From positions 3,008,001-3,072,000 of the forward strand of contig OY776510.1 of the NCBI GenBank assembly GCA_963675665.1: DNA of 64,000 nucleotides, read 5' to 3'. The position numbers were made by a program, and so were the translations under genes. The DNA is from Spirochaetia bacterium (GTDB lineage Bacteria; Spirochaetota; Spirochaetia; UBA9216). The notes beneath the pieces are model-generated. The model saw only the letters and a list, made by a program, of their open reading frames with translations. It was not told the origin of the DNA and did not search any database. This document shows positions 28,801 to 48,522 of this stretch, piece by piece (positions within the stretch are counted from its first letter, which is position 1; each line of letters starts with the position of its first letter).

Positions 28801-28835
28801 TAGAATGAATGCCTTGTAATCGGAGAGGGTCGGAT

Positions 28836-29450: not shown

Positions 29451-29474
29451 TTCCGGTTTTTTTTGAATAGAAAC

Positions 29475-29495
29475 ACATACCAACTGGTCGGTATT
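29475..29495. promoter_or_regulatory. Putative TetR operator 2
   Basis: ACATACCAACTGGTCGGTATT upstream of the gene at 29546. Confidence 0.75.
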
Positions 29496-29545
29496 ACATT
29501 AGAAAAATTGAGAAATCCCTTCCGGGGATTTATAAGGAGCTGCTG

Positions 29546-30682: not shown

Positions 30683-30824
30683 TATTTCACAGGATTAACG
30701 GTAACACTCTTCATAACAGGAGCATAACATTGTGAGAAAGTCCGGCGAACGAAAAAACAATTGTAATTAATTCGGATAACAATATTTAAAGAATTACTAT
30801 ATAATATGAATCAAGGAGCATGGT

Positions 30825-31178: not shown

Positions 31179-31509
31179 TACTGTTCTATTGAAACGGATC
31201 TGATAGAGATATTCCGAGCTCCATTACTGATCCGTAACAAGCCTCGAAGACCCGGCCGTTTTTGATACTTATAACGTTGCTATATGGAATTTAGGGATAT
31301 ATATGTAAATGGGCATGTAGTTGTGTTTAAAAGTAAAAAATACTGACAATTGTTTAGTATAAGTAAATATTTGTATATATTTCAGGAAGTGTAATGCAGT
31401 AATTGTTTATATAGTAAGAAAATATGTATATGTTAGATGTTTAAGATAATAAATAATAAAAGTTGATGATAATTGTAAATGATGTTATTTTATTATCGAG
31501 GAGTTTTTA

Positions 31510-32235
31510 ATGAATTTAAAGAATGGTATACCCAAGAAAATTACTCCAGATCCTATAATCGATGCAAATTTTGAAATAAGATTTCAGTCTGATTACCCTG
31601 AAAATGCAGTATTTGGGGTTATATATGGTAAAATAAGTGAAGGATATCCTGAATTTAAAAGTACTGGCATCCCTAATGAATTACGTCAAAAGGACCCAAA
31701 CTTGAGATATATGGCAGAAGCTCATATTAGTAATGAGAAATTTATTATTGGAATATCTAGCCGTACATTTTTCATAGGATGTAAAGGTGACTACAAGGGG
31801 TGGAACGATTATAAAATTGAAATTGATAGGGTTCTGAGTAATGTGTTAGATGATCCTAGAATATTTAAAAAAATTGATAGAATAGGTATGCGATATATAA
31901 ATTTCTTTCCAAATGAAAAAAGTATGAATCATACTACTGAAATGAAAATTGATTTTACAAATTCTGATGAATTTGAATTTATTAATACACAAACTCGTGT
32001 TGAATTAGAACGGAATGGATATAGAGCAATTTTAAATTGTGCAGATAATGCTAAAGTTCTAAATAGACAGGAAGAAGGTAGCATTGTCGATGTTGATATT
32101 TTTAAAAATATAGAGGAGTCAATTAATAAAGCTGATATTATGAATATTGCAGAAGAATTACATGATAATGAAAAATATTTATTTTATTCAATTATTAATC
32201 CATCGATAATAGAAAATAGGAATCCCGAATATTAG
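31510..32235 (+). CDS. TIGR04255-family protein in an AT-rich island
   Basis: PKKITPDPIIDANFEIRF, YKGWNDY, IDRIGMRYINFF, VDVD, LHDNEKYLF; GAGGAG RBS. Confidence 0.8.
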   Translation: MNLKNGIPKKITPDPIIDANFEIRFQSDYPENAVFGVIYGKISEGYPEFKSTGIPNELRQKDPNLRYMAEAHISNEKFIIGISSRTFFIGCKGDYKGWNDYKIEIDRVLSNVLDDPRIFKKIDRIGMRYINFFPNEKSMNHTTEMKIDFTNSDEFEFINTQTRVELERNGYRAILNCADNAKVLNRQEEGSIVDVDIFKNIEESINKADIMNIAEELHDNEKYLFYSIINPSIIENRNPEY

Positions 32236-32247
32236 GAGAGTTTTATA

Positions 32248-32781
32248 ATGGTAACAATGAATTGTGTACCTAAAGAGAGCCAATGCAAATATTGGATAGA
32301 TTCTGAAATTGGTACCTGTGCTCCATCAATACAGCCCATTTTAAACGAGGGTATTATTGATAATAATATTGAATTAGAAAAGTATATTAGCAGGCTTTCT
32401 GATTATTCTCTTCCTATTTTCCTAAAGGATATTGATATTTTTACTGAAAAAGTTTCTATATTATCCGAAAGCTTTGAAGGGGAAATAGAAAGAAAGAACA
32501 TTTTTATACATTCTATAATTCAAGAGCAAATAATGACTTTATTTCAAGATTTGGTTTTGTCAAATTATATTTTGGCTTCATTGGAAATTGTTGATAATGA
32601 AAGTATTTTTTTTAATATAAAGTATAAGGATGATATAAATATTCATGTTGATGTCTATTTAGAGGATGAAGAATTATTTGGTAATGAAATATATTATGTG
32701 GTTTATAAAGGTGATAATTTCCTGAAAAATGGAGAAACAAATTTATTCAATCTAAAAAAGGTAATTGTAGAATATACTTAA
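32248..32781 (+). CDS. Acidic hypothetical protein
   Basis: AGGAG RBS; stop adjoins the next start; AT-rich like its neighbours. Confidence 0.75.
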   Translation: MVTMNCVPKESQCKYWIDSEIGTCAPSIQPILNEGIIDNNIELEKYISRLSDYSLPIFLKDIDIFTEKVSILSESFEGEIERKNIFIHSIIQEQIMTLFQDLVLSNYILASLEIVDNESIFFNIKYKDDINIHVDVYLEDEELFGNEIYYVVYKGDNFLKNGETNLFNLKKVIVEYT

Positions 32782-33395
32782 TGGAAGGCTTATACCCAAA
32801 AGAAATTTTACCTGAAGATAATTATATAATTATTGATAGGGATGACTATACGGAAGATTTATATTTTTCAAGAAGAGCAATAGCAAATGATCAGTTAGCA
32901 GATGATTTAGGAGATGTAAGAATAGATGCAATAATTACATCTTCGCAAGATTTATATGGGCTTTCATTAAATTTACTTGGTAGATTTAATGCAGAGCATA
33001 ATTTTTATATTGTTGATAATAAATCTGGATTATTGGATCTTTGGGCGCCAGGGATGGACATACCAGATCCTGAAAATATTGAATATGAATATGAGAAATG
33101 TGCATTATTATTTCTTGAATTATCAAAAATAAATGGCTGTGATTATCCTTATCACTACTCGAATAGCGAATATAATGGAAGAGGAAAAGTTATACATAGT
33201 CCTATAAAATGCAACTACTGGCATTATGAATTGAAATTTATTGATAATGATGGAAAAGAAATAACTAGAGATAGTAAAAAATGGAAGCGTAGTGCAGCAA
33301 AATCTTTTATAAAATCATATTTAAAGAAGCATATAAAATTAGTAAAACCAGACTATAAATTGCTCGATGAATCGTTTTATATAAAAATTGTATAG
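32781..33395 (+). CDS. Hypothetical protein, possible ADP-ribosyltransferase-like fold
   Basis: Coupled to the previous gene; spaced motifs YFSRR, GLSLN, HSPIKCNYWHYEL (fold call is inference). Confidence 0.6.
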   Translation: MEGLYPKEILPEDNYIIIDRDDYTEDLYFSRRAIANDQLADDLGDVRIDAIITSSQDLYGLSLNLLGRFNAEHNFYIVDNKSGLLDLWAPGMDIPDPENIEYEYEKCALLFLELSKINGCDYPYHYSNSEYNGRGKVIHSPIKCNYWHYELKFIDNDGKEITRDSKKWKRSAAKSFIKSYLKKHIKLVKPDYKLLDESFYIKIV

Positions 33396-33575
33396 ATAAT
33401 CCATTTAACAAGAGATTTGCAACAGTACTTGGTTTAAAGATAGAGAAGATTTATTGTAAATGAAGAAAAAACAAAAATTTTTTGATTTTTAAAATATTTC
33501 ATGATAGGCTTGTATAAAACAAACGTCAGCTAATAAAGATAATTTAAAAACGCTAATTATAAAAAGGATAGTTTT

Positions 33576-36500
33576 ATGAAGGGTGTCCGTAGTCTTTTTA
33601 CGGTGCTTCTCTGTTTTTACTCGTTTATTTTGATATCAAATGTTATTTCGCAGGACTCAGAGTACAATCACGCTGATATATCTTTTGACAATGTTCTTTT
33701 CAGATCCTACCTTGATACGGCGGACAAGAGAAAATCCTCGGAGCAGTGGCTCGATTACGCACGCTTCGGGCTTGAGAGCGCGTTATCTTCGTGGGAGAAG
33801 GAAATCATTCTGTTGCTGGGCGATGATTTCGATCTTTCAGATCTTCGCGATGACGCAGAGACGGAGCTTGACGAAATTCTGAAAGAGCGCTATGCCGAAT
33901 GGCTCAACAATAATTTTTTTAATTCGGTTGATCCGCCCTCACTGGGGGCTTTGAGCAGCGAGATAGTCGCGCTGAACGGGCAGTATCTGTATGAGACGGA
34001 CAAGAACGGGAATATTACATACAAGACAACAGTTAACTATTCCGATGTTTATACGACCGACGCGACGGGAAACGAGACGCTTGTACAAAAGGGCGAGAAG
34101 ACGCTCTGGGTCGAGGGGGTAAAGTCGAAGATTGCCGAACTTCTCGATGCCTGGAGTCAAAAAATGACGACGGCCTTTTCGGAGTTAAGGGCTTCAGTAA
34201 CGGAACTGGCCCTTCTTGAAGAACTTGAGCAGGATTACCTGCGCGATTATGAAAGCTATCAGGATAATTACCGCGATGAGCTTTACCGGCTCTACAATAC
34301 CGAACAGAGCAGGTTCACGAGGTTGAGGCTCTACGACCAGTATTCGCTTGAGCATCAGAGCGGGCAGGAAACTGCGTCAAATATATCGAACGAGCTTATT
34401 GCCGCGACCCGGGCCGAATTGAACAGTAAGCTTGAAGCGCTTGTAAGAGGATTAAACGCACAGGCTGCGTCCGGCGAAAGCGGCAACGGAATAGTTAATG
34501 CCGAAGACTGGCGCGAGTCTTTCTCGACTCTGCTTACGCTGGGAATGAACAGTTGGGACGAGGCCGAGCAGGAGCTTCTGATGAAGCGGATAGAATGGGA
34601 GCAGGACGCCGCAGGCGAGGTCTCCGACGGGGAAGAAGCCTGGGCGGACGCCTTCCGTCAACTGTCTGAAAAACGTACCGAGTGGATGAACGAATACCGC
34701 CGGACGCTGCAGGAAGGAAACCTGCTGTGGGCCGAAGAGAGCCTGGAGCTTGAAGAAGCAATAGCAAAGGCCGTGTCCGAGATAGATGAAAGCATAGCGA
34801 ATTCCGGGGCTTCTTTGCAGAGCCGGATAGACAACCTTGTAGGAATGCTTTTACAGTCTGTAAACATGATGCGTACGGCAAGGACCAGCTGGGAATACTG
34901 GATGGATCGTTTCGACGAGGGCGAAAAAGGTTCGTTTGATACGAGAGGAATAGATTTTGATCCGGATTCGATGCTGGCCGTTACGGAGGAAGTTAAAAAC
35001 AGACTTGATGAAGAAAAGCTGAATGAAAAATATTCAACCATTGCAGCTTATTCGGATTATGATCAGGAAGCCATGAAGCATGCAATGGCATGGATAGATG
35101 ATAAATACGGAATATATACGGAGGGATTGTGGTCCGAACCTCTGTCGTACTCAGACAAACTTGATATCTTCAATTCATATGACCCTTATAAATATAATAT
35201 CCCATACTATGGTCTTAATCCATATTATCTCTATAATGTCAGAAACCAATATTTTTCGGCTATTGACGATCTGTTTTCTGAAATGGCGGTACTTGGTTCC
35301 GTGCCTCAGACCGGAAGCGATGTTTATGACGAAGCCGTATACTGGATAGATATGTTCAGGACCTATCAGGAGTATGCCCTTGACGCCCGGCAGGGGCTTG
35401 CTGAAACCTACGGGATAGTTGTTTTTGACAATGCCTCGCTTCAGACGGCCTTTAACGGAGACGAGCTGAACGATGCCCTGCTTGATAATGATCTTTTATT
35501 CGATCAGGATTCCTGGGAATCTATTTATCTGGATGAGTATCAGGTGGAGCTTTTAAAGGCCAGGGCATACATGCAGTACTGGCGGAAACAGCAGGAGATT
35601 GCCCGGGCTGTCTATGATTACGCGGCCGACAACTCTTCCACCAAGGAGAATGCCGGGGTTACTTTAGGAAGACTCGCCGATGCGAAGGCAGCCTATGAAG
35701 AGGTCCTTGCCGAATACTCCGATTGTCTCGACAGGCTTTCGAACATCAGCACCGACCTTGAGACGCTGCAGGCCGATATGCAGACCATTCAGGAAGAGAT
35801 AGACGGTTACCAGCAGCAATTGGACGACGTTCGGTCTCAATATAACAGTGCAATCACCGATCTCGATCTGGGCAATGCGGAATACCTTGCCGGACAATAT
35901 CGCGAATACTACATCCGGCTTCTGGAAAGTATGGGCATGACAGGAGATTCTGAGGAAAGTCCGTCGACTGCGCTCGAAGAATACCTTCTTGCGGCCTCGG
36001 AATACGGGCTTGAAGACCGGATCTCGCTTGTATCAAACAGGATTGTCGGGCTTTTAAGCGGCGGCGAGAATACAAACCTGGACGGCAGCATGTTCAATCC
36101 GGAAACCGCGTCGCTGTCCGAGCTTGGAAGACGGATGCAAACCGTTTCGGACGCAGGCTTCATTTCGGGCCCTTCAACGGATGAGCTGTTCGGGTTTGAA
36201 GGAAACGAAGAGGCGATTGATCAGTTCAATGCCTATCTGTCCGACAAACTGCTTCTGCCGATGAGCGATTACCGCCATGACAAGCTGATTGAATACTTTA
36301 CAGCCTATACCGACGCGGACACGGAAGAGATTGAAAAGAGCAGGCTGCTCTGGCAGATGCAGCTTATTGCGGAGGAAGTCCGAAACGAAAACAGCATGAA
36401 CTATGAGCTGAGGCTGGCGGAGCTCAGACTTCTTTCGACCGACGACTTTTCGTCCTGGGCACAGCAGCACTTCGGCGACGAAGCGGCTGATGCCGATCCT

Positions 36501-39500
36501 GAAGGATTAATCGGAAGCGCGGAAGAATCCGGGCTGACCGGTATTACCGAAGCAGTTGTGCGGGATTTACAAGTGTATGAGGAAATCCTTGAACTGTATC
36601 AGCAGCAAGCCGATTCGGGCGGCGGGGAGTTCGTAATATATGAATGGGGTTCCGCACCCGGCGACACGCCTCCGGAACTTTCGAAACAGCAGGCCCTGCA
36701 GATTCTGTGGGACTACAGGGGCGGCGATACAGATGAAGAAACCGCATCGGACATTTTCGGGGTAGTCGAATCGCTCGGGGCCCTTGTTTCCTGGCTTGAA
36801 TCCCTCGGAAGTCTTGATGATGATATATCCGTACTCGAATCGGCAGTGCTTAATCCCGACGAGGCCCTGGGGCAGCAGTATCTTAAAGCCTGTCTAAGCG
36901 GACGCCGTAATCTTGCAACCGATATGGGCGATATGTATTCAGTGATCTATTCCGATTCCGTCAGCAGGCAGAAATACACAAAAGGGTTTGCCGAATTGTT
37001 GTCGGAAAATATCGATTACGCGCCCTGTCTGTCGGCTTACGGATATGAAAAATCCCGCGCGGGGCTGATAGAGATGCTTGCGCAGTTCGGGATAATAGAT
37101 GCCGATACCCTGATTTTTCATGCTCCCGAGGCCGTTTGGGAAGTCCGGGGATTTTCAACCGTCGAGGAAGTGGCCGGTTTCTTTACCGGGCTTGATAAGG
37201 CGGCATCGGGCCTTCAACTGCCTGAATATCTTGCGGAGATCTTTGAAGGGTACAGAGGCGAGCTGAAGGATTATTTCGCTATAAGGACCGCTTCGGCATT
37301 TTTCGGGGAGTTTTCCGGCGATCCGGGTCCTGTTAACGAAAAAATCAGGCTTGTAACGAACAGCATGAGCAGTCTGGGAGCGTTGACGGGCACACTTCAG
37401 AAAAGCAGTGATCAGAGCGTGAAACTTTTGGCTCTGGCCGTCTCCGATGATGTTTCGGACGAATTGCGGGAGGAAGCGGATTTTCGGCTGATAGAGACCG
37501 CTGGATTCGATCTGGCGGCCGACGCTCTGGACACGGACGGTTTCAGCGGCGCCGGGGCTGAATGGAACGAATTGTTCGACAATTATATATCAGCGGTGAG
37601 GACCGGCCTTGGTCAGGAAGACGGAATAGAGGACTACCGTTCGGCCATGACAGACCGGGCAGCGGAGCTTTGGGAGCTGTCTATTGCACTTGCCGATCCT
37701 GATTCGGTAGATCCGGACAGCGCTCCGGAACAATGGCTTGAATCCTACAGCGCCATGATCTGGAACAGTTTTGACTTTGACGAGGCGCTTGACCGGATTA
37801 CCGGGACCGACAGTACGATAAATATTTCTCAGCTTGAGCAACTTCGAATAATAGATCAGCTGATGCCCGAAACCGCAGGCGATTTTCCTTCCGATGTTGA
37901 GCTGGAGTGGCTTTACGAAGGAAATGAGGTCCTTCGTGAAGTTGATTCGATGATAGTCCTGGGACTGCCGGAATTGTGGGCCGGCGATTCGTTTGATATT
38001 GCGGAAACCGTAAAAAGCCGGTACTACAGTGATGAAGATATAAGCATAATGGAAGATATGCTTGTTTTGTCGATTGAAGAGTCGGAAGCAGGCGTTACAA
38101 CTGTAGACAAGGCCGTACAGCTCTGGAATGATCAATTCGACGGCGGTTTGGCGGACGGAAGCATTGACGGACTCCTGAAGGCCTTCTGCGGACTGGGGCT
38201 TATAAACCCGGCTGTGGAAGCGGCAGGGGAGTATTCGGCAGAATACGGATATGAAGACCTTCTTGACGAACTTTTGGCCGGGGCAGTCCTGAGCGAAGAC
38301 GATCTGGCCATTTTGGAGGAGGCTGTCCTGAATCCGGCGGAAGCCCTTGAAGCACGGCTTGACAAGCTTGCCGAGCTTGATGCCGAAGCCCTGTCGGGTG
38401 AAGAGCTTTACTGGAACCTTGCCTGGAATATCCGCTCGGACGCTGCGGAAGACGACTATTCCCGGACTGCCGCGCGCGGCGCCCGGATTTTTGACGATAT
38501 TGAAGCTGCCGGAGTAATCAGTAACTGGATTTCAAGCTTTGACGAAGCAGGTTTTGAATCGTATTCGGAGGAACTTGCGGACCTTTTTGATTCACAGATG
38601 AGCAGGATTGCAGGGCTTGCCCAAAGCCCGGCCGGAGGCGTCTATGCCTCCATAGCGGCATGCGGTATCGGCGAGGTACTGGTTGAGCAGGCCGGATATT
38701 CGGATGCGGACGCGGCTGATTTTGTAAACTGGTTTATGACAAAAAAAGGTATAGACGAAGCATTCGACCGGGAATCGTTGACCGATTATCTGTCGCTGGA
38801 ACCGGATGCGCGTTTTTATTCGGTTTTGGCCGATTATCCCGATGCGGCAAGCCACTATCTAAAGAAACAGATAGCGGAAGGAGCGTTTACCTCAACAACC
38901 CTGTCTGTTTTACTTGACTCCGTCAATCTTGCCGATGAGACGGAGGCGGAACTGGTTGAAATTCAGGGAATACTCGATGATGTAGAAGTCTATAACGAGC
39001 TTCTGCATGGAGATTTCGAGGATTTTCTTGACGAACGTTACGGCAGTGAAGAACAGAAGCGCACGGCGCGCGAGATCTACATGAGGTTTATGGGCAGCGC
39101 GGAGGTCCAGTGGGATGATGCCGTGTTCATGCTGTCTTCGGGTTGCGGAGCAGGCGCAAGGGAGATTCTTGATAACCTTTCGTTCAACCGGACAAGGGGC
39201 AGCAACCTTAGCGGGCTTAATCCCGGATCGGGAACAGGCTCAAACGAAGTGTTCTTAAACGAGGCCCTGATGACGATCTATGAGAAACTCTACGAAAGAG
39301 ATGACGCGCTGACGGCTGAACTGTCCGCTCTTCAGTCGGAGAGGGACCTTCAAGTCAGAGCAGCGGACTATCTCGGTTCTCTTGAAACTATCGATTCCGA
39401 CAACTGGCGAAGCTTCCTGAACGATGAATGCCTGTCCTCCGAAGACGATGAGCTGAATCTGGTTCCCGCTTCGACGGTTGATTATAATTATTCTGATTAT

Positions 39501-42500
39501 ACAAGAAATCTTCAGATAAACAATAATGACGGGGACCCGGTTTTTCAGAATTTTGATTCGCTTACGCTTTTTTCCGGCACGGGTAATGACCAGCTGAATA
39601 TAATTCTGGAAGCCGCAAACTCGTATCTTGATTACGCGGCATATCTGACCGCGGCAATCAACAGCTGGGACGACGGAACAATTTCGGCTACCGAAACCAT
39701 GAGAACCCTTCATGAAGGGCTTGGTTCCGCAGACGGCAGTGATTTCCGGAACAGCCTTGAATCCAAATCGTATGCTGAAATAAATCAGGCCTATTCATAC
39801 GAGATCGACGCGTCGGTTGAAAACGGATATAAAGAAGCCCGGAGTGAGTTTTATAACCTTACGGCAAAGATAGAATCAATTAAGGAAAGCCTTTCAAACT
39901 TCGGCTACAGAAGGGCGCGGCTTGTCAGAATGGCTGCTATGGGAAGTAGTGAACAGCTTGCGGAGCTCCGGCCCCTGAACGACGAGATAAGCGCGCTTGA
40001 GGCTGATATCGACGCGGCCCAGGCTGAATGGCAGGAGCTGATAGACGGCGCCGACGGATACAAAACGCTTGAAGAAGAATACGCCGGTGTTTACGCGCAG
40101 ACAAAAGCCGCCCTGGAGGAACTGAATGTACTGAAGCAGGAGTATTCTACTGCAAGGGCGATATACGAATACGCTTCGGCAGGCTACCTGAGTATAGACG
40201 ACGAAATACTCAGCGAGTTTGACCCGGTAGAGACCGGCGCCGAAGACGATTCAACAGCGCCGGAAGACGATGAAACCGAGGTAGAAAGCGGAATAACCGG
40301 CGGAACAATGGTGGCCTCTGATGTTGATCTAGGTGAACAGACCGCGGATCAGGTCTACCGCGATGCCCTGCTTGCGACCATCAACAAGGTAAGTCCCGCG
40401 GAAAGGCTTGTATATATAAATGAAAAGCTTGCAAGGGCCGGGGCCGCAAACGATGCGCTTGAGACGATAATAAACGGAGGCTCCGTGACCGGGTCAATCT
40501 ATTCGAAAGACGAGGTCTACCGGGCTTATTTCGATAATTACCTTGAAACCTTCCGCGAATCGCTTGTGTTGAACAAGATCAATCTCGTGCTCAACAAGGC
40601 AATCGCAAGGCAGGAGACCGTGACCCGTGAAGCCCTGTCCGACTGGAATACGGCGATTAGCGAAAGCTATGGAACGCCGGGCTATCTTGATTCAGAAGGC
40701 AACGCAATCGTTCCCGCCGGACTTGACTCATGCTCTATAGTACAAAATGCCGACGGAAGCCGGGACATAAACTGGGACGGCGCCGGCTCTAACGCGGAAA
40801 CATTCAGGCAATATTTTGAAGCAAATGAGAACTCCGAAACCGGTTCAAGTGATTTTCAAAACGATCTGATGCTCTGGCTGGAAAAAGTCAGCGGGATAAT
40901 GAACGGCAGCGGGGCCCGGGACCTTTTCACAACCTGGGCCATGGCGCTTAAATGGGAAGAGTTCCAGGCAGCAGGAGCCCCCGGCGATATAAACGACAAT
41001 TTCTGGACTGATTTCCTGAATAAAAACGGCGAAGGCGACCTGGACCGCGAAGGCGCCAGGACCCTGCTCATTACAGAATGGCAAAACGCCTTTAATAAGG
41101 TTAATTCCTGCACCGGTGAAAATAAACGGCTGTACAGTTTTTACAAGCTGCTCGATAAGGGCGGAATAATGCAGCTGAATACTGAAACAACAACGGGCGA
41201 CAGTTTTGAGACCTTTGATCTTCTCGGAGAAAATGAAAGCGTGATTCTGGCAAACCAGTATTTGTCGGATGAATATAATCAGGATGCCAATAACTTTTTT
41301 ATTGCCTCAATTCCAATGTTCAGCATGGCCGTAGCATATTTTGCTGCGGCAACACTTGCGCTTGCAATTCCGTTCAACTGGGTTGCCGCCATAATACTTT
41401 TCGCTTTGGGTACGGCAGCGGCCCTGGGCGGGGCTCATATGGTTGGAGAAGGAAACGCGAAAAAGGCCGCTGCAGATTATATTCAAAATAAGATTGTAAA
41501 ACCTGCGGAGTATAACAGTACGAAGTTTATGCTGAATTTCAAGCAAAACACATCATTGATTCTTGATAAGAAACAGGTGTATGAAGAAGAGTTCGCGAAA
41601 TTACAGAGGATGGAGGGAGAAGCCGACGGTGATGAAATCCTCACCGACGAACAGCGAATCGGGCTTTTAAAAATCTCGACTATTGAAGCCTTTAACAATG
41701 AAGGTGAAGATCTTCATGCCCTTCTGTTTCAGGGCGGACTTGTATCGGAAACCGGAAATACCGACGCTGATACCGCGGCGCTTGAAGCGCTGTTTGGCGA
41801 TTATCAGGAAATGATGGACCAGAGCGAGAAGGACGAAAGTGTCAACAGCAGCCTGTTTATAAGCGCGCTTGAAGAAGAATCGCAGGACTACAAACAGATT
41901 ACCGCGAGAGAGCTTAACGATTACCTGACCGGAGAAGACGGCGTTGCAAGAGAGCAGGTCGAGGCGGAAGAAGTGTACCGGAGTGCATACTATCAGTATC
42001 TGGCCGAAGAAATAAGCCTTGAGGAATTTGAAGAAGCGGCCGAATCGGCATTCGGAAACCCCGCCTTCTCGGTAAGGGAACACATGCTGAGGCTGTATGA
42101 ACAACAGGCCGGGATAGCGGAAATAATAATGGGCAGCGATCAGTTTAACGCCGCCATAAGCGCCGAGTTGCTTGAAAGCCGGGAACTCCTGCTATGCGGA
42201 AGCGGGAGCCGAAAAGGCATTTATGATTACAAGATGAGCAATTACCGTGAAGTCAGGATGTACGATCTGCAGATGCTGCAACTTGAAATGAACGAGAAAT
42301 ACCGCAACTGGGAGAACCGGATGAGGGCCATATCGGCACGGGGCGAGCTTGAATGGAGCGCCGGCGAACGGAAGCTTACCAGGAAATACACCGAATGGCA
42401 GAAAGAAACAAAGCGCCTGTACAACAGGCAGTCCGAAGCCTGGGACGATAAATACCTTGACTTTCTGAGCGATAAACAGGCATGGCTTGATGCGGTAATG

Positions 42501-45500
42501 ATCCAGAGCACGAAAGTCGGCGACATGGACGTGCTCGAAAACTTCGGAGAAATGACCGGAGCAGCCATAGCCGCAGCCGGAGCCGACGTGCTTGCAGGTG
42601 ATTTCAGCAGCCTGGAAACAGATCCTGGCGCGCTTCTGTCGGAGGTAGTAGACTTTGAGCTGTTGGGGACCCTGCTTGAAAACGCGCAGAACCTGAACGA
42701 CTCGATAAACGATACGGAGAACGTAATATTTACAGCCGCTGCGCCGGACAGCTTCACAACCGCCGACAGCCTGCAGGCGATAAAAGACTTTCAGTCTGTT
42801 CAGAATGAAGAGTATGAAAAGCACCTTGCCGAACTGGAACTTGAGCGTATGCTGGAACAGGTTGAGGATGCCGAGGAGAGCTTTAATGAGAGTATCGACT
42901 CCGCCAATAAAAGCCTGGACAGCAATATAAATCAAACAATGAGAAACGACGGCTACACGCGCAGCGGCGGACGCTATGAAAGAGAGCTTGTGGTAGGGGC
43001 AACAATAGGCGGGTACGTATATGAAGACGGTTATGTGAGCACATACGATGATTACCTCCCTGAAAATATTGATTTCGGAAGCGAATTGAAGGATGCCCGA
43101 AACAATGTTGCGAACCTTGATTCGAAAGGCCTGCAGGGGCTCGTTGCAAGGGCCATGGAGAACATACGGGAGCAGCTGAAACGGATATTCGGTTCGGACG
43201 ACGAGACGGAAAACGCCGAAATGCTTGTGGAGCTTGGTTTTCCGGTGACTGTGGAAAAAGATAAAGAAGGCACAGTAAAATATAAAAGAGAAGATACCAA
43301 TCACTCCATACTTGAGAGCGTAGCAGACTGGGTAGGGGAGCATCTTGATTTGAATATGGATACAAAAGAAAACTCTCCCGAAATATCACCGGGATTATTC
43401 GGAATACATGTAGGCTACGCGCCCGAGTTTGCCGATACCGCCGATACAGGCAGGGAATGGAACGACGAGGGGCAGCTGAAAGACGAAGGGCTTGGCGAAA
43501 TGGGAAGAATCATGGGTGAGTTTATCTTCAACAAAATGAAGGAAGGAGCCGGCTGGGCCGAGGTGAACATGCCGCATTACAAGAAACCGTTGTGGGAAGG
43601 CGAAATTTTCGGAATAGAAGCGCCGAGCGCTGCGGACCTGACGAGCCTTGCGGTTACTATCTGCACCGCCGGAGCTGCAAGCGGCGCAGGGGCCATACTT
43701 TCAGCGACAATAAACCTGAGCGATGATTTTGCGCTATCTGCAATGGACATAGTCACCGGAGACAAAAGCCTGCTTGAGGGAACGCTCGACTTTGGGAAAA
43801 AAGCATTTGTATCACTGGCAGGAGCAGGGATTGGCGAAGGCGGAGATGCTCTAAGCAGTACCCTGGATCTGGACTTGGGAGGGGAACTTCTGCTTGGCAC
43901 AGGAGAGCAGATAGTAACAAACACCGCCTCTGGAGCAATAAACGCCATAGAATACAGCGAAGAAGGAGGGTGGAACTACAACTGGAACACCCTTGTGCAG
44001 AGCGTGGCCGGAGAAGGTGCAGTAGCCGGGTATGTAGGAAGCGCCGCAGGAACGGCTGCAACATTCGGCTTGAACGAGTTGAATAACAGCATCGATGCCA
44101 ACGGATTTTATCTTGGAGATCTCAAAATAGATCAGGAACAAATAGGCCGTGTAAACTCGATGATAGGCGGTATTGCCGGTGAAGCGGCAGGTTCGCTTGT
44201 AGACAAGGATTTCTCGCTTAATGTTCTGAATCTGGCGGATATAATGGCGCTTGCGGGAGTTGAGGAAGAGAACACCAGTGACCTCGGCCTGTTTGAAGTG
44301 CATATGGGTTTTGACGAAGACGGAAACTTTACAAGCCGCAACAAGATAGGCACCGGCGGGGCCCAGGTAAGCTACCGCGATATTTTGTTTGATGCAGATT
44401 CAGTATTTAATAATATGGCAAGAATAAAGAGCATAAACGAAGACACTGCGGCAGCCGCGGCAAACCGCGACGTGATGCTGGGGATAACCGACAGAAGCAT
44501 AGGTGTTGATGAATTGACATTTGATGGAGCCAGCGAGGTAAGCGCGTTGCTTAGATCGCAGCTTGAAGGGACCCGAACCGAACAGAGTTACAAGAATATA
44601 AACGCATCGATGCATTCCATGACCGGTGTAATAAACAGCGGCTATTTGTCTGAAGGCAGTTCCGGGTATATAGAAGGTGATTCGGCAATGGCTGTAATGA
44701 TGCGTGAGCTTCTTGAAAATGACAAAAGCGGCATCAGCCATGAAAACCTGTTCGAAATGTTCGGCACCGAAGAAGGGCGCGAGCAGTTTGCAGAAGCAGT
44801 CCTTGATGCCAACCTGCTGCTTGCCTACAATCAGGGTGACATAGGCACTGATGAGTTTATGGGCAGTGATATCTTTAATACAACAGGAAGCTTCAGCCTT
44901 GCCTATGAGATGTATTCCGGAGCATACGGAGAAGAAACCTCGGCAGTAGTAACGCTTGCACGGATGTTTGAAAGCGGCAAAGCGTATGCGGGAACAATCA
45001 CAGATGCCGATATACAGGCGGATATAATTTCACAGAAGGAAGCCCTGGTAAATGAATATTTCAAGGAAGATATTGCCAATGCCGATGCTCTTTTGGGAGG
45101 AAATTTCTTTAATGCTGAATCGCATATTAATGAGGGAATAATATCGAACAGGATGGAACAGATAGGTGATGAAATGGCGGCAATAGCAGCGGCACATCTG
45201 GCCCATCAGTCATTAGCTTCCGGTGTAACCGGATATGACTCAAATACCATAACATATAAGAAAACGGAGCTGGATGAACTGAAGAAAAATTGGCTTGATT
45301 CTGCAATTGAACTGTCAAAAATAGCAAATGATAACGGCATCAAGTTTAATTATGAATATGCTTTAATAAGCAAGAACCCTGTCATGAATGAGGCCGGAAC
45401 GGCGGCATCACCGGTATATGGGGGAACAGGATTATATACACTGTATGGATGGGAAGTAATAACCCCGGAAATGGCGGAAGCGACCGGAAGAGCTGTATAC

Positions 45501-46109
45501 AGTAACAGATTACACGAAGCATATGATATTTCCAAAACCTGGGCGGAAGAACAGCAGTATGGAACTGATGAATACTTCACAGCTCCGGAAGCCGGAAGCT
45601 TTGATATTAGCTGGAATTCGGGAGGTGCCGGGATTGAGATAGTCTTAACATCAAGCGATGGTGCATATCAGCACCGATTAGGGCATAATTTTATAAACAG
45701 CATTGATGCTATGACGGAGCTGTTGATATTAAACGGTTCGACCGAAGTGGCCGCCGGAACTGTTATCGGGGAGTATCAGGATTATAAGACAAACGAATCT
45801 ACGGGATCTCATTCGCATTGGGAAGTATACAGAAATATGAGTGAAAGTCTTTTTACAAATTATATACAAATGGATAACAATGATTGGTTAACGGAAAGAT
45901 ACGGCAGTAATCCCTTTACGGCATCGGAAAGAGCGCAGAACCTGAGCGGTTTATCGGAACCGGGCACATATGAATATAATATAAACCTGACAAAGAAATA
46001 CGCTGCAGAGGAATACTGGAACTACAGAAGCAATCAGGAATTCGGTATAGAGCTTTCAACCAGGACAGAATTTTTATTCTATTTAAGGATGATGAATCAA
46101 TGGATGTAA
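33576..46109 (+). CDS. Giant (4177 aa) secreted acidic coiled-coil protein with central hydrophobic hairpin and C-terminal M23 peptidase-like domain; putative polymorphic toxin
   Basis: Sec-type signal; long heptad-like helices; hydrophobic stretch FFIASIPMF..AALGGA; C-terminal HEAYD (HxxxD), APEAG, HRLGH, VAAGTVIG, STGSHSHWEV (HxH). Confidence 0.85.
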   Translation: MKGVRSLFTVLLCFYSFILISNVISQDSEYNHADISFDNVLFRSYLDTADKRKSSEQWLDYARFGLESALSSWEKEIILLLGDDFDLSDLRDDAETELDEILKERYAEWLNNNFFNSVDPPSLGALSSEIVALNGQYLYETDKNGNITYKTTVNYSDVYTTDATGNETLVQKGEKTLWVEGVKSKIAELLDAWSQKMTTAFSELRASVTELALLEELEQDYLRDYESYQDNYRDELYRLYNTEQSRFTRLRLYDQYSLEHQSGQETASNISNELIAATRAELNSKLEALVRGLNAQAASGESGNGIVNAEDWRESFSTLLTLGMNSWDEAEQELLMKRIEWEQDAAGEVSDGEEAWADAFRQLSEKRTEWMNEYRRTLQEGNLLWAEESLELEEAIAKAVSEIDESIANSGASLQSRIDNLVGMLLQSVNMMRTARTSWEYWMDRFDEGEKGSFDTRGIDFDPDSMLAVTEEVKNRLDEEKLNEKYSTIAAYSDYDQEAMKHAMAWIDDKYGIYTEGLWSEPLSYSDKLDIFNSYDPYKYNIPYYGLNPYYLYNVRNQYFSAIDDLFSEMAVLGSVPQTGSDVYDEAVYWIDMFRTYQEYALDARQGLAETYGIVVFDNASLQTAFNGDELNDALLDNDLLFDQDSWESIYLDEYQVELLKARAYMQYWRKQQEIARAVYDYAADNSSTKENAGVTLGRLADAKAAYEEVLAEYSDCLDRLSNISTDLETLQADMQTIQEEIDGYQQQLDDVRSQYNSAITDLDLGNAEYLAGQYREYYIRLLESMGMTGDSEESPSTALEEYLLAASEYGLEDRISLVSNRIVGLLSGGENTNLDGSMFNPETASLSELGRRMQTVSDAGFISGPSTDELFGFEGNEEAIDQFNAYLSDKLLLPMSDYRHDKLIEYFTAYTDADTEEIEKSRLLWQMQLIAEEVRNENSMNYELRLAELRLLSTDDFSSWAQQHFGDEAADADPEGLIGSAEESGLTGITEAVVRDLQVYEEILELYQQQADSGGGEFVIYEWGSAPGDTPPELSKQQALQILWDYRGGDTDEETASDIFGVVESLGALVSWLESLGSLDDDISVLESAVLNPDEALGQQYLKACLSGRRNLATDMGDMYSVIYSDSVSRQKYTKGFAELLSENIDYAPCLSAYGYEKSRAGLIEMLAQFGIIDADTLIFHAPEAVWEVRGFSTVEEVAGFFTGLDKAASGLQLPEYLAEIFEGYRGELKDYFAIRTASAFFGEFSGDPGPVNEKIRLVTNSMSSLGALTGTLQKSSDQSVKLLALAVSDDVSDELREEADFRLIETAGFDLAADALDTDGFSGAGAEWNELFDNYISAVRTGLGQEDGIEDYRSAMTDRAAELWELSIALADPDSVDPDSAPEQWLESYSAMIWNSFDFDEALDRITGTDSTINISQLEQLRIIDQLMPETAGDFPSDVELEWLYEGNEVLREVDSMIVLGLPELWAGDSFDIAETVKSRYYSDEDISIMEDMLVLSIEESEAGVTTVDKAVQLWNDQFDGGLADGSIDGLLKAFCGLGLINPAVEAAGEYSAEYGYEDLLDELLAGAVLSEDDLAILEEAVLNPAEALEARLDKLAELDAEALSGEELYWNLAWNIRSDAAEDDYSRTAARGARIFDDIEAAGVISNWISSFDEAGFESYSEELADLFDSQMSRIAGLAQSPAGGVYASIAACGIGEVLVEQAGYSDADAADFVNWFMTKKGIDEAFDRESLTDYLSLEPDARFYSVLADYPDAASHYLKKQIAEGAFTSTTLSVLLDSVNLADETEAELVEIQGILDDVEVYNELLHGDFEDFLDERYGSEEQKRTAREIYMRFMGSAEVQWDDAVFMLSSGCGAGAREILDNLSFNRTRGSNLSGLNPGSGTGSNEVFLNEALMTIYEKLYERDDALTAELSALQSERDLQVRAADYLGSLETIDSDNWRSFLNDECLSSEDDELNLVPASTVDYNYSDYTRNLQINNNDGDPVFQNFDSLTLFSGTGNDQLNIILEAANSYLDYAAYLTAAINSWDDGTISATETMRTLHEGLGSADGSDFRNSLESKSYAEINQAYSYEIDASVENGYKEARSEFYNLTAKIESIKESLSNFGYRRARLVRMAAMGSSEQLAELRPLNDEISALEADIDAAQAEWQELIDGADGYKTLEEEYAGVYAQTKAALEELNVLKQEYSTARAIYEYASAGYLSIDDEILSEFDPVETGAEDDSTAPEDDETEVESGITGGTMVASDVDLGEQTADQVYRDALLATINKVSPAERLVYINEKLARAGAANDALETIINGGSVTGSIYSKDEVYRAYFDNYLETFRESLVLNKINLVLNKAIARQETVTREALSDWNTAISESYGTPGYLDSEGNAIVPAGLDSCSIVQNADGSRDINWDGAGSNAETFRQYFEANENSETGSSDFQNDLMLWLEKVSGIMNGSGARDLFTTWAMALKWEEFQAAGAPGDINDNFWTDFLNKNGEGDLDREGARTLLITEWQNAFNKVNSCTGENKRLYSFYKLLDKGGIMQLNTETTTGDSFETFDLLGENESVILANQYLSDEYNQDANNFFIASIPMFSMAVAYFAAATLALAIPFNWVAAIILFALGTAAALGGAHMVGEGNAKKAAADYIQNKIVKPAEYNSTKFMLNFKQNTSLILDKKQVYEEEFAKLQRMEGEADGDEILTDEQRIGLLKISTIEAFNNEGEDLHALLFQGGLVSETGNTDADTAALEALFGDYQEMMDQSEKDESVNSSLFISALEEESQDYKQITARELNDYLTGEDGVAREQVEAEEVYRSAYYQYLAEEISLEEFEEAAESAFGNPAFSVREHMLRLYEQQAGIAEIIMGSDQFNAAISAELLESRELLLCGSGSRKGIYDYKMSNYREVRMYDLQMLQLEMNEKYRNWENRMRAISARGELEWSAGERKLTRKYTEWQKETKRLYNRQSEAWDDKYLDFLSDKQAWLDAVMIQSTKVGDMDVLENFGEMTGAAIAAAGADVLAGDFSSLETDPGALLSEVVDFELLGTLLENAQNLNDSINDTENVIFTAAAPDSFTTADSLQAIKDFQSVQNEEYEKHLAELELERMLEQVEDAEESFNESIDSANKSLDSNINQTMRNDGYTRSGGRYERELVVGATIGGYVYEDGYVSTYDDYLPENIDFGSELKDARNNVANLDSKGLQGLVARAMENIREQLKRIFGSDDETENAEMLVELGFPVTVEKDKEGTVKYKREDTNHSILESVADWVGEHLDLNMDTKENSPEISPGLFGIHVGYAPEFADTADTGREWNDEGQLKDEGLGEMGRIMGEFIFNKMKEGAGWAEVNMPHYKKPLWEGEIFGIEAPSAADLTSLAVTICTAGAASGAGAILSATINLSDDFALSAMDIVTGDKSLLEGTLDFGKKAFVSLAGAGIGEGGDALSSTLDLDLGGELLLGTGEQIVTNTASGAINAIEYSEEGGWNYNWNTLVQSVAGEGAVAGYVGSAAGTAATFGLNELNNSIDANGFYLGDLKIDQEQIGRVNSMIGGIAGEAAGSLVDKDFSLNVLNLADIMALAGVEEENTSDLGLFEVHMGFDEDGNFTSRNKIGTGGAQVSYRDILFDADSVFNNMARIKSINEDTAAAAANRDVMLGITDRSIGVDELTFDGASEVSALLRSQLEGTRTEQSYKNINASMHSMTGVINSGYLSEGSSGYIEGDSAMAVMMRELLENDKSGISHENLFEMFGTEEGREQFAEAVLDANLLLAYNQGDIGTDEFMGSDIFNTTGSFSLAYEMYSGAYGEETSAVVTLARMFESGKAYAGTITDADIQADIISQKEALVNEYFKEDIANADALLGGNFFNAESHINEGIISNRMEQIGDEMAAIAAAHLAHQSLASGVTGYDSNTITYKKTELDELKKNWLDSAIELSKIANDNGIKFNYEYALISKNPVMNEAGTAASPVYGGTGLYTLYGWEVITPEMAEATGRAVYSNRLHEAYDISKTWAEEQQYGTDEYFTAPEAGSFDISWNSGGAGIEIVLTSSDGAYQHRLGHNFINSIDAMTELLILNGSTEVAAGTVIGEYQDYKTNESTGSHSHWEVYRNMSESLFTNYIQMDNNDWLTERYGSNPFTASERAQNLSGLSEPGTYEYNINLTKKYAAEEYWNYRSNQEFGIELSTRTEFLFYLRMMNQWM

Positions 46110-47119
46110 TGATGAAGAGAAGAATAATTGCGATACTGATATTTGGGATATTAATAACGGCAACTGCATTTTGTGAGTATGAGATAAGGATTGTCAAGCC
46201 GCTGCCCGCGAAATATATTATGGAGTCTTATATCTGGCTCAATGATGAAGAGATTGTCTATAATATATCCGGGCATAATCCGAGTCAGTTGAGAAGATTG
46301 AATATAATAAACGAAGATGATGAATTATTGCTTGATGGGGAAGCAAGAGATGAAGATTACCATATTTTCTCTCTTTCCCTGATTAGTGTTGATAAGGAAT
46401 CACTAATTATAGGTATAAGCAAAGGAAGAAGTACTTATATTAACTCCTATTTTTTTAATTTAAGAACTAAAAATCTCGAAGAAATTAAATATAATTATCA
46501 AAATAATCCAGGCATTAAGTATCAAAATAATTTAGGGTTTAATGAGAATTTATTTGAATTTGGTGCGGGACGAACAGACGCAGGTTTTACTTACATTCAA
46601 AAATATCCTGAAACCGGAAGGGTGGTAAGATATGACTATACATGGGAAGAATCAGGCATTCAGAGGGTTGTTAGTAATACTGAATTTTTTAATGTCTCCG
46701 ATGTACTGGATGATAATCTGCTGATAACTCATGTCGAAGCCAATTTGGGAGTCAATTATCTGACGCATTTTGACGGCGATGGATTTTCCCGAGCAGTAGT
46801 CGTTCCAAATAGCGACTCGCAGAGGAGTTTAAAAACCAATTGGGGAGCATATTTTCTTAAAGACGGCAATATACTTTTCGGTGAGGATATGAACGATGAT
46901 ACCGATTATTTTGATCCGGATGAGGCATATTGCAGGTTGAGGATCTGTAACCGGGAAGGGGATACTATTTATACCTTTGATGATTTTTTGTATATGAGAG
47001 ATGCCTATCAATATTTTACAATGAGTCCGGACAGAACAAAGATAATAATACAGGGTTATGATATGACCATGTGGCCGCCGCAGACAAAAGCTTATCTGCT
47101 GGAGATAATATATAATTAA
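46109..47119 (+). CDS. Exported beta-rich protein, putative cognate immunity protein
   Basis: ATG overlaps the toxin stop (TAATG); signal MMKRRIIAILIFGILITATAFC; WLNDEE, SPDRTKII; paralog of 47363. Confidence 0.75.
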   Translation: MMKRRIIAILIFGILITATAFCEYEIRIVKPLPAKYIMESYIWLNDEEIVYNISGHNPSQLRRLNIINEDDELLLDGEARDEDYHIFSLSLISVDKESLIIGISKGRSTYINSYFFNLRTKNLEEIKYNYQNNPGIKYQNNLGFNENLFEFGAGRTDAGFTYIQKYPETGRVVRYDYTWEESGIQRVVSNTEFFNVSDVLDDNLLITHVEANLGVNYLTHFDGDGFSRAVVVPNSDSQRSLKTNWGAYFLKDGNILFGEDMNDDTDYFDPDEAYCRLRICNREGDTIYTFDDFLYMRDAYQYFTMSPDRTKIIIQGYDMTMWPPQTKAYLLEIIYN

Positions 47120-47161: not shown

Positions 47162-47361
47162 CATTTGCATGTTTATTACAGGATTGGTTGTTTTGAGGAA
47201 TACTTGAAGGTATTTCCCGAAATGAGAAATAGACTAACTCCGATTATTTTGTTGATTATATGGAATCAAAATACGGAATAGACAACGCGGACTGGCAGGA
47301 TTATCTGAAGGCTTATTATTGGGAAAACTACACGATATATATGCAGGGAATGGGGTATTAG
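47162..47361 (+). pseudogene. Frameshifted ORF tail, possible orphan toxin C-terminus
   Basis: HLHVYYRIGCFEEYLKVFPEMRNR, then in another frame NSDYFVDYMESKYGIDNADWQDYLKAYYWENYTIYMQGMGY-stop ending 1 nt before ATG 47363. Confidence 0.45.
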
Positions 47362-47362
47362 A

Positions 47363-48274
47363 ATGAAATTTAAAAAATGGCTCATACTTTTATTATTAAA
47401 CATTATATTTTTAACAAGTTTTACAAATGCATATGAGATACGACTGGTAAGGGAAGATCCCCTCCATGTGATAAGATATCTGGGCTGGATCTCGAACCAT
47501 GAGGCGGCTTATTGTATTTACGGAACAGATAACATTGTTGTATACAAGAACCTGCTTGGAGATATGCCTTATGAGAAGCTGAAAGAATTTCCTGAACGAG
47601 TTATATATGTTGGTGATGATAATACAAAATATGAATTATTTATAGAAATTGGTGATGATGTTTATATATTAGATAAGGAAATTATGAAAATAGAACTATT
47701 ATCAACTCCTGATGGATATAAATACAGCGGGGGGCGTCAGTTACCTGAAAATATATATACATATAATATAAATACTTCACCTGGAAAGCTGTCTTTAAAC
47801 AGGGCTGATTATAAGAATTACGGGCATCTTGAAGCAGATATCAGGGATTTTGAACACTATAAAATTTTGAAGAAATTAGGTGTATATAAAAATGAAGAGA
47901 GCCCCGGATATTTAATAATCGGAAGTTATGGAACAGATTTTTATGAAGTTCAATTTGAATATCCGGAAATTAAGGCTGTAATTCCTATTGTTGAAGAATA
48001 TGGGTATGTTGATATAAAAAAACTGGATGAAGACATGTATCTCGGAATGTTCTACAGGGAAGATGTGGAATCAGATGATGAATATTCGAGGTGTTCGCTG
48101 CGGGTTTTTAACAGAGAAGGTGAAGTTTTTCTCGACTATAAAGACTATCTGCTTGTAAACCACCACGGTATTGGTGAAAGCTTTTATCTGAGTCCAGATA
48201 GGAGGTATATAATTGCCACCGGTTCAAAGACCCTGGGAAACCATAAAACGCTGATATTTGAATTGATAAAATAG
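47363..48274 (+). CDS. Second exported beta-rich protein, putative orphan immunity paralog
   Basis: Signal peptide; AYEIRLVR / CSLRVFNREG / YLSPDRRYII match EYEIRIVK / CRLRICNREG / TMSPDRTKII of 46109. Confidence 0.75.
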   Translation: MKFKKWLILLLLNIIFLTSFTNAYEIRLVREDPLHVIRYLGWISNHEAAYCIYGTDNIVVYKNLLGDMPYEKLKEFPERVIYVGDDNTKYELFIEIGDDVYILDKEIMKIELLSTPDGYKYSGGRQLPENIYTYNINTSPGKLSLNRADYKNYGHLEADIRDFEHYKILKKLGVYKNEESPGYLIIGSYGTDFYEVQFEYPEIKAVIPIVEEYGYVDIKKLDEDMYLGMFYREDVESDDEYSRCSLRVFNREGEVFLDYKDYLLVNHHGIGESFYLSPDRRYIIATGSKTLGNHKTLIFELIK

Positions 48275-48410: not shown

Positions 48411-48522
48411 GCGTTAGGGATGGGAAGGGCGCAGGGACTTCGTCCCTGCGGTGGAAAACGGCGTTGCCGTTTTTTACGAAACCCCTGGACAGCCCGACCT
48501 TGCAGACTGCAAGGGAACGCCC
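48411..48522. repeat. GC-rich multi-hairpin element (REP/MITE-like or structured RNA)
   Basis: CGCAGGGAC-TTC-GTCCCTGCG, AAAACGGC-GTT-GCCGTTTT, CCTTGCA-GAC-TGCAAGG, closed by GCGTT...AACGC. Confidence 0.7.

Follow-up and report, generated by a model that had tools for sequence, protein, structure and literature searches.

A stretch of 64,000 nucleotides (nt) from the genome of a Spirochaetia bacterium (contig OY776510.1, positions 3,008,001 to 3,072,000 of the forward strand), referred to as the window throughout, encodes a protein of 4177 amino acids (aa), P0001. We propose that this protein is a giant polymorphic effector, exported by the Sec pathway and armed with an M23 metallopeptidase tip against competing diderm cells, that the secreted product of the next gene, d1, is the cognate immunity protein, and that the gene after it, d2, is an immunity gene left behind. 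We hold this reading to be probable (roughly 0.7). It builds on the architecture of the protein, the homology of its tip to M23 enzymes, the exchange of cassettes, orphan cassettes, a displaced tip remnant, the linkage of tip and downstream gene, and the linkage to a conserved operon, all of which are established at the level of sequence comparison.

A conserved body followed by unrelated C-termini

The giant gene and the parts of its product are as follows.

33576..46109, + strand: giant gene P0001, 4177 aa, from the open reading frame (ORF) list and its translation, with an ATG start
33576..33653, + strand: predicted Sec signal peptide, residues 1-26, called from hydropathy and not by a dedicated signal-peptide predictor
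33633..35045, + strand: conserved N-terminal domain, residues ~20-490, which aligns to P0003, P0004, P0006, P0007, P0016, P0021 and P0022
35046..41294, + strand: long acidic stalk of variable length, called from composition and conserved among close relatives only
41295..41447, + strand: 50-aa hydrophobic hairpin, residues 2574-2624 (Kyte-Doolittle maximum 2.16)
41973..43625, + strand: family-wide conserved body domain, residues ~2800-3350, with the motifs GLFGIHVGYAP and GEMGRIMGEF (invariant columns, two alignments)
43626..44075, + strand: Gly/Ala-rich hydrophobic zone, residues ~3351-3500, from composition and hydropathy
44076..44387, + strand: junction module, residues 3501-3604, ending ...GLFEVHMGF...IGTGGAQV, from a hidden Markov model (HMM); homologues diverge beyond it
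44388..45275, + strand: cassette adaptor module, residues ~3605-3900, part of which recurs with other tips; no family match
45276..46106, + strand: putative M23 metallopeptidase tip, residues 3901-4177, with a C-terminal helical extension, from a profile against the PDB and conserved motifs

Homologues agree in the body and part company near the junction. In BLASTP alignments, P0002 is 89% identical to the window's protein over query residues 1091-3594 and unrelated thereafter (homology break at residue ~3495), P0003 (55% identity) aligns to residue 3502 only, and P0004 (47%) to residue 3557 only. Distant members, at 22-25% identity, have the N-terminal ~470 aa and residues ~2800-3620 in common. 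P0013 is ~90% identical over residues 3492-3640 and ~25-30% identical beyond them, with a homology break at ~3645, and this step leads us to regard it as an allele in which the same body bears a different tip. What follows the common body of ~3500 aa and the junction is an unrelated C-terminus of ~400-580 aa: some have an M23-like ...STGxHLHWE, P0003 and P0004 have a separate end in common, P0006 carries HEGSH, and P0007 has a Cys/His pattern.

The HMM of the junction (residues 3501-3604) was found in 27 of 29 family sequences, among them 19 of the 21 that were not in its seed, and where detected the junction always lies 248-578 aa ahead of the C-terminus. Clustering of the last 260 aa of 36 sequences gave 15 clusters, of which the 12-member M23 cluster is inflated, its members having been retrieved with the window's own tip; the 21 tails retrieved with body queries fall into 13 clusters. 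The cassette itself appears to be of two parts, an adaptor module and a tip, because residues 3728-3870 recur in P0014, P0017, P0020 and P0022, all of which have other tips. An exchangeable tip had been proposed from the window alone, in an earlier note made without database searches; the alignment of homologues bears this out, with a conserved N-terminal body, unrelated C-termini and variable downstream genes. One sequencing run, which held 45% of the sampled words, was rejected as a strain with another tip: its low-coverage fragments are identical to the window.

The giant-protein family seems to be rare and, as far as searched, confined to Spirochaetota. Six relatives of similar length were found among 5.8 billion protein clusters (1690 best candidates scored), and the last 577 aa as the query gave 15 relatives in a full HMMER pass over 1.84 billion representatives. 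Body motifs, scanned as patterns through one genome of each prokaryotic species, retrieved 8 loci, all of them related, from records titled Spirochaetota, Spirochaetales, Spirochaetaceae, Spirochaeta or Alkalispirochaeta. The locus searches were made with narrow alignments, two broader ones having proved too diverse. The giant gene was matched in 13 of 41 related genomes, including four of the five other genomes of the window's genus; a metagenome scan for the tip gave one short locus only. Family members range in length from 2543 to 4177 aa, and the source genome (5.15 Mb, one contig) holds one copy of the giant gene.

The ORF of 4177 aa that the earlier note had placed at 33576-46109 was found there, with an AAGGA ribosome-binding site 8 nt 5' of its ATG. 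The signal peptide that the note had claimed corresponds to a basic n-region followed by a hydrophobic stretch at residues 2-26 (Kyte-Doolittle maximum 2.11). Of 11 homologues with a complete N-terminus, 8 have such a stretch above the hydropathy cut-off, and P0006 and P0021 begin with a basic-then-hydrophobic run as well, under the cut-off. The protein is, as had been described, strongly acidic (pI 4.11, 18.6% D+E, net negative charge in all 200-aa blocks), and the composition of the body (L+A+E 31%, Pro 1.5%) is compatible with helix, as judged from composition alone. The N-terminal domain belongs to no Pfam, NCBIfam or PHROG family. The whole protein likewise gave nothing above threshold in Pfam and NCBIfam and nothing in PHROGs or PADLOC; in particular, neither Pfam nor NCBIfam revealed a Hint or other autoprotease family, in agreement with the note, which had seen no Hint- or intein-like autoprotease. 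A BLAST search of the protein against itself found no internal repeats at E 0.01, and cross-matches among homologues hint that residues ~230-430 resemble residues ~2880-2990.

Two hydrophobic elements had also been described, with a putative role in translocation. The double helix expected at ~41295-41445 was located at nt 41295-41447. This hairpin is confined to the close subfamily (the window and P0002 to P0004), weak in P0007 and unaligned in distant members, and such a restricted distribution makes a central role in the mechanism improbable. The Gly/Ala-rich hydrophobic zone, expected at ~43630-44200, is seen as a G+A content of 28% in residues 3401-3600 compared to 10-22% in other blocks, with a single hydrophobic window at residues 3357-3376. 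A hydrophobic segment equivalent to this zone lies ~220-235 aa ahead of the junction in five distant homologues, and the zone, which is conserved family-wide, is a candidate membrane-insertion element. Behind the junction, P0006 has HEGSH, P0002 to P0004 have HESYR, and the window has RELLE; since RELLE stands where P0006 has HEGSH, there appears to be no obvious catalytic site in the post-junction module of the window allele.

A tip related to M23 endopeptidases

The zinc ligand motifs that the earlier note had read in the tip are in place: HEAYD begins at nt 45513 (residues 3980-3984), and STGSHSH occupies 45798-45818, with its H-S-H at 45810-45818; between the two lies GHNF, from 45681. In an alignment of 13 tips, HxAxD, the His in 'HN' and STGxHxH are conserved. 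In the alignment used for the profile search described next, H4079-S-H4081 is invariant and H4037 (of GHNF) almost so; the latter stands opposite the catalytic His in the PDB chains, and all five catalytic and zinc-binding residues of M23 are kept.

Consistent with these motifs, a profile of 11 tips matched 5j1l (E 4e-7), 4rny (E 2.3e-4), 9gy1 (E 0.0029) and ShyA (E 0.0036) in the PDB (hmmsearch), with further matches to LasA, zoocin A and LytU; among the 14 listed matches, 11 are M23 proteins. HEAYD aligns to the HxGxD of 5j1l and 4rny, and the nearest solved relatives of the tip are endopeptidases of diderm bacteria. The M23 relationship suggested earlier thus gains the support of a profile search, and we conclude that the tip is a divergent and, to judge by its residues, catalytically complete M23 endopeptidase. 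A phmmer search of the PDB with the C-terminal 577 aa gave no real match.

Prediction of the tip by AlphaFold 2 (AF2) from the single sequence gave a mean predicted local distance difference test (pLDDT) score of 33. The top Foldseek matches of the low-confidence tip model were lysostaphin and LytM, at a non-significant level (best E 7e-3, TM ~0.2); the ~90-aa C-terminal helical extension was modeled at pLDDT >90. A Pfam search of 18 tips returned a single sub-threshold M23 match and nothing else, and PDB profile searches with four other tip types gave nothing below E 0.1.

Downstream genes, a displaced tip and orphan cassettes

Behind the giant gene lie the following features.

46100..47119, + strand: d1, secreted 339-aa protein and candidate cognate immunity protein, with a 10-nt overlap with the giant-gene stop and an N-terminal signal sequence
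47236..47361, + strand: displaced-tip remnant, the last 40 codons and stop of a P0013-type tip (tblastn, 95% identity to P0013 residues 621-660)
47363..48274, + strand: d2, secreted 303-aa paralogue of d1 and candidate orphan immunity protein, with a signal sequence (BLASTP of d1 against d2, E 5e-7)
48448..48477, + strand: terminator-like hairpin and T-run after d2, by consensus match

The site at 48448 is the only terminator-like site on the + strand between 35516 and 49200, and because this lone site is 3' of d2, the arrangement fits a single transcript for the giant gene, d1 and d2. Neither d1 nor d2 has a family in Pfam, NCBIfam, PHROGs or PADLOC. One d1 homologue, P0024 (77% identity), was found in the index of 5.8 billion clusters, and no d2 homologue in 400 other Spirochaetia genomes.

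The remnant is a trace of tip exchange in the window itself. It lies in frame within the 243-nt spacer between d1 and d2, and its stop codon (47359-47361) ends one base before the ATG of d2. The simplest reading is that a tip and d1 were inserted together at the junction and displaced an earlier tip, of which the 3' end and d2 would remain.

Furthermore, every giant gene or orphan examined is followed immediately by an ORF, often overlapping, with a signal peptide or a lipobox, and the d1 family lies directly downstream in all three loci, namely the window, L030 and L032, that have this type of tip and for which downstream sequence exists. At L032 (genome G101, from another family of the class), where the tip is ~39% identical, the overlapping downstream ORF matches d1 with E 9e-12 and 6e-18. 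The d1 homologue at L032, 2533-3535, is split over two frames, which may be a decaying immunity gene or an assembly error. At L030 (a 1.4-kb metagenome contig with a tip 42% identical), the downstream ORF matches that of L032 with E 3e-9. L037 carries a more distant M23 tip, and its downstream ORF, although it encodes a signal peptide, shows no detectable similarity to the d1 family. Among seven other pairs of loci with a common tip type, judged over 230 aa or more, three (G001/G004, L006o1/L004 and G037/G032) also have their downstream proteins in common.

In L021, L022 and L003, the first downstream gene encodes an FGE-sulfatase (SUMF1-like) protein with a signal peptide; the tip of L003 is dissimilar to those of L021 and L022 despite this neighbor. 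The FGE-sulfatase proteins may provide immunity against a shared sub-module or may be accessory enzymes.

Orphan cassettes are laid out most fully at L006, an Alkalispirochaeta locus, where the full gene and a small ORF with a signal peptide are followed by three partial ORFs, the orphan tip cassettes. These are 81-92% identical to residues 2172-2642, 2347-2642 and 2543-2808 of the main gene and then diverge, and behind each comes a small secreted ORF of its own. The array region of this locus (20462-34100) continues into an ORF pair at 31548-32832 whose start looks transposase-like by eye; a partner gene is duplicated (30122-30931 and 32790-33590), a 31-codon body fragment lies at 34001-34093, and the genome has a second full-length family member, L005. 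The immunity genes that the earlier note had placed behind the tip have gained further support from the d1 family in three of three loci with the same tip type, the displaced remnant before d2 and the orphan arrays. Taken together, these comparisons strongly support an exchangeable, putatively toxic tip with immunity genes.

A conserved operon linked to the giant gene

Upstream of the giant gene and divergent from it lies an operon with genes for a resistance-nodulation-division (RND) transporter pair, a membrane fusion protein (MFP), an outer membrane factor (OMF), a tetratricopeptide repeat (TPR) protein and lipoproteins.

15684..28495, - strand: linked operon overall, from Pfam and conserved gene order
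27830-28495, - strand: TPR protein (Pfam)
27366-27833, - strand: small lipoprotein (operon member)
25955-27394, - strand: OMF, TolC-like (Pfam)
24588-26006, - strand: MFP, HlyD-like (Pfam)
23129-24598 and 21576-23132, - strand: two Big_5 Ig-like lipoproteins (Pfam)
18584-21592, - strand: RND1, AcrB family (Pfam)
15684-18587, - strand: RND2, AcrB family (Pfam)

The same gene order, divergent from the giant gene, occurs in L002, L006, G004, G014, G037 and G012, six loci whose bodies are 22-56% identical to that of the window and in which the gap between operon and giant gene is ~0.2-1.1 kb. Of the 9 loci whose upstream side was examined, 7 have the operon next to the giant gene; in L001 and L005 it is not adjacent, yet it occurs elsewhere in their genomes. 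Presence of the two is also correlated. With Big5a as the marker of the operon, 12 of 41 genomes have both, 1 has the giant gene only, 3 have the operon only and 25 have neither (Fisher p 7e-7), so that the operon is present in 12 of 13 giant-positive genomes; the three operon-only genomes are all 81-86% complete. Counted over 31 families, the figures are 8, 1, 1 and 21 in the same order (Fisher p 1e-5). Both p-values overstate the case, since relatives are not independent. A simple pattern search found a motif like that of transmembrane segment 4 (TM4), ...VVDNSIVV..., in RND1 and no comparable motif in RND2.

Other features of the neighborhood

28496..33575, no strand: ~5-kb insertion between the operon and the giant gene, with a TetR gene, an ATC-hydrolase/transglutaminase gene, a 117-aa ORF and a low-GC trio

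The low-GC trio of ORFs (31510-33395) is directly upstream of the giant gene, with a GC content of 0.26-0.28 and a GC content at third codon positions (GC3) of 0.17-0.20. The first of the three is a TIGR04255-family protein that also matches phrog_5464 (function unassigned), the other two have no family, and none of the trio has a PADLOC match.

A direct repeat of 127 nt (80% identity; 28534-28660 and 48915-49041) flanks a 20.4-kb block that extends from TetR to d2. Its second copy covers the promoter region of a sigma-54 activator gene (49012-50442) together with ~10 codons at the start of that gene, and its first copy contains the start of a 62-aa ORF (28631-28819) with the same first residues as the activator. 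The repeat looks like a partial duplication left by a rearrangement or insertion of the block beside the TPR operon. Downstream of the activator gene and just upstream of a gene for an AAT-family acyltransferase (50711-51748), TGGCATAATACCTGCT at 50674-50689 is a near-consensus sigma-54 -24/-12 element. Matches to the sigma-54 consensus in the window are at the level of chance (31 vs 23.8 +/- 5.0), with none before the giant gene.

Comparison with known systems

Contact-dependent growth inhibition (CDI) systems, which use type Vb secretion, have a giant Sec-dependent stalk, a conserved junction before a variable toxin, an immunity gene next to it, and orphan or displaced cassettes. The giant gene resembles CdiA/CdiI in its conserved body, junction, variable C-terminal tip, candidate immunity gene immediately downstream, and orphan and displaced cassettes. 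However, the giant protein lacks two-partner secretion (TPS) domains and filamentous haemagglutinin (FHA)/haemagglutinin repeats (no Pfam or NCBIfam match), and no CdiB/TpsB-type gene is present among the scanned neighbors, the RND/MFP/OMF operon being linked instead. In place of a beta-helix, the giant protein has an acidic body whose composition favors helix, and the junction motif is another one.

The genetics of the giant protein is also like that of other polymorphic toxins such as Rhs and MafB, with a conserved body, unrelated tips, a co-varying downstream gene and orphans, but YD/Rhs repeats, PAAR, LXG, MafB-N and known pre-toxin domains are absent. MafB is likewise Sec-dependent, and its outer-membrane step is unclear. 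PT-TG (PF14449) had no match in six junction segments in Pfam at E up to 10. It came up as a language-model neighbor at 0.82, and an 'RHS repeat-associated core' cluster is a neighbor at 0.86, without a Rhs/YD match in Pfam; both values are under the lead threshold of 0.9.

With M23 enzymes of the LytM/lysostaphin type (lysostaphin, zoocin A, LasA), the tip has HxxxD, the catalytic His, HxH and profile similarity in common. It differs in that it is under the Pfam threshold, has a ~90-aa helical extension and is fused to a 3900-aa carrier. Some M23 enzymes serve as antibacterial weapons, and producers of lysostaphin and zoocin are immune by modification of the cell wall, whereas the candidate immunity factor here is a secreted protein of a new family.

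Finally, the linkage of OMF and MFP genes to a giant exported protein is reminiscent of tripartite pumps and of the type 1 secretion systems (T1SS) that export giant adhesins through TolC-like channels. In contrast to T1SS, an RND pair and not an ABC exporter would be at the inner membrane. RTX repeats are absent from the candidate substrate, which begins with a Sec signal at its N-terminus; compared to pumps and T1SS alike, the operon has additional genes for a TPR protein, a small lipoprotein and two Ig-like lipoproteins. Full-text searches of open-access papers and preprints brought up neither the giant family nor an RND-linked giant toxin. The text of Zhang et al. 2012 (PMC3482391), as far as it was covered, contains neither 'M23' nor 'glycine zipper' and refers to spirochaetes solely in phyletic lists and in a remark about immunity genes of Treponema denticola.

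Proposed mechanism and alternatives

In our model, the conserved body (N-terminal domain, stalk, ~800-aa C-proximal domain, Gly/Ala zone and junction) would carry a replaceable cassette of ~580 aa, which in the window probably consists of the adaptor module and an M23 zinc endopeptidase. The giant protein would be exported by Sec and then be handled by the OMF/MFP/Ig-lipoprotein/RND apparatus, which may thread or display it via the TolC-like channel. The tip would reach the periplasm of a neighboring diderm cell and cut the peptide cross-links of its peptidoglycan. In the producer and its siblings, d1 in the periplasm would neutralize the tip, presumably by binding, and d2 would protect against relatives that still carry a P0013-type tip. 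Recombination at the conserved junction would have put the present tip and d1 in the place of an earlier cassette.

The OMF-MFP-Ig-lipoprotein-RND operon is our leading candidate for the export route of the giant protein. It is imaginable that an undescribed envelope-spanning machine of Spirochaetia carries the effector as cargo or extrudes it as a shaft. After Sec export, RND proteins driven by the proton motive force would move the ~4000-aa protein out of the periplasm and across the outer membrane via the TolC-like channel, a second secretion step that would serve interbacterial killing with swappable wall-degrading tips. The parts of such a machine would be the TolC-like channel, the MFP, the two Ig-like lipoproteins, the TPR protein and the paired RND transporter. 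We offer RND-driven secretion and this list of parts together as a speculative extension, which we consider doubtful.

Several points weigh against the giant protein being an interbacterial effector with d1 as its immunity protein. The Pfam M23 model (PF01551) scores the tip at 13.9 bits (E 0.062), below its gathering threshold of 28.7, the AF2 model made with an alignment has a mean pLDDT of 55 with 27-70 in the catalytic core, and Pfam recognized no toxin or enzyme family in the other tip types (18 tips). In four of the seven tip-sharing pairs the downstream proteins have no detectable similarity, two downstream families (the FGE-sulfatase type, and G004_d4 together with G033_d1) occur with dissimilar tips, and the direct match of the L030 downstream ORF to d1 is weak (E 0.003), so that its assignment to the d1 family is partly by way of L032. 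Exceptions of this kind are typical of fast-evolving immunity genes, yet they weaken the rule that tip and downstream gene are paired. As for base composition, the drift toward AT at the tip, which the earlier note had taken as a sign of exchange, does exist (GC3 of 0.55 over the body compared to 0.37-0.40 in the last ~380 codons). As evidence of exchange it is ambiguous, because ordinary chromosomal genes downstream are equally AT-rich (GC 0.36, which the lower GC of the tip matches) and the GC content of the window is heterogeneous; the drift alone is no proof of foreign origin. Last, the hairpin could anchor the protein in the inner membrane of the producer, which would be compatible with a self-directed role.

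Such a role can be spelled out: the giant protein would be a structural or enzymatic part of the RND-linked apparatus, anchored by the hairpin, and would remodel the cell's own peptidoglycan, with the downstream proteins as regulators or inhibitors and the diversity of tips reflecting the wall chemistry of lineages. The close synteny and joint occurrence of the giant gene with a conserved envelope operon speak for it, as does the single copy of the giant gene in the window's genome, and the hairpin is compatible with inner-membrane anchoring. Furthermore, most M23 enzymes are endopeptidases with housekeeping roles, and in the PDB the tip is matched best by enzymes of cell-shape and autolysin type. 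However, presumed close relatives with near-identical bodies (P0002 at 89%, P0013 at ~90%) have unrelated tips, orphan arrays and a displaced remnant with a retained partner speak for diversifying conflict and not for housekeeping, and the hairpin is absent from distant members. We therefore regard a self-directed envelope machine as unlikely.

An alternative that keeps the exchange of cassettes and does without killing is a variable surface fiber or adhesin, the tip of which is swapped by recombination for binding specificity or for evasion of phages or predators. A giant acidic stalk with a signal peptide would suit a fiber, giant adhesins of T1SS are linked to OMF and MFP as well, and the arrays resemble silent cassettes. 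On the other hand, a complete M23 catalytic set is kept in the tip, antigenic or adhesive variation would not require the secreted partner gene that is tightly coupled to each cassette, and no adhesin repeats or domains were found in Pfam or NCBIfam. We think this alternative quite improbable. That the gene is a remnant of a phage or mobile element, encoding a protein like a tape measure, long and helical, with hydrophobic segments and a muralytic domain at the C-terminus, is scarcely credible: the layout does resemble that of tape-measure proteins with muralytic ends, tape-measure clusters are among the language-model neighbors of the N-terminal domain (0.82, again under the lead threshold of 0.9), and a low-GC island lies upstream, but the giant protein has no PHROG match and no tape-measure family in Pfam or PHROGs, none of its neighbors has a known phage function (one has a function-unassigned PHROG), no phage structural genes occur in the window or related loci, the N-terminus carries a signal peptide, and the same operon context is conserved in at least six families.

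Significance

Interbacterial toxin delivery has hardly been explored in spirochaetes. The giant family described here has the full genetic hallmarks of polymorphic toxins: its cassettes are exchanged, orphans occur in arrays, and immunity genes are retained where tips were displaced. Its carrier is without similarity to any described stalk or trafficking domain, and its tips are mostly new. What appears to be new, as far as comparison of sequences can tell, is the carrier of this polymorphic toxin system, together with its candidate export route and the families of its candidate immunity proteins. The divergent M23 tip and its proteinaceous immunity partner are a candidate enzyme-inhibitor pair for peptidoglycan biology. 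Moreover, the pairing with the operon makes the crossing of the outer membrane by Sec-dependent polymorphic toxins, a long-standing question, a testable one, and if the RND link is functional, RND machines would be extended from small molecules to giant proteins.

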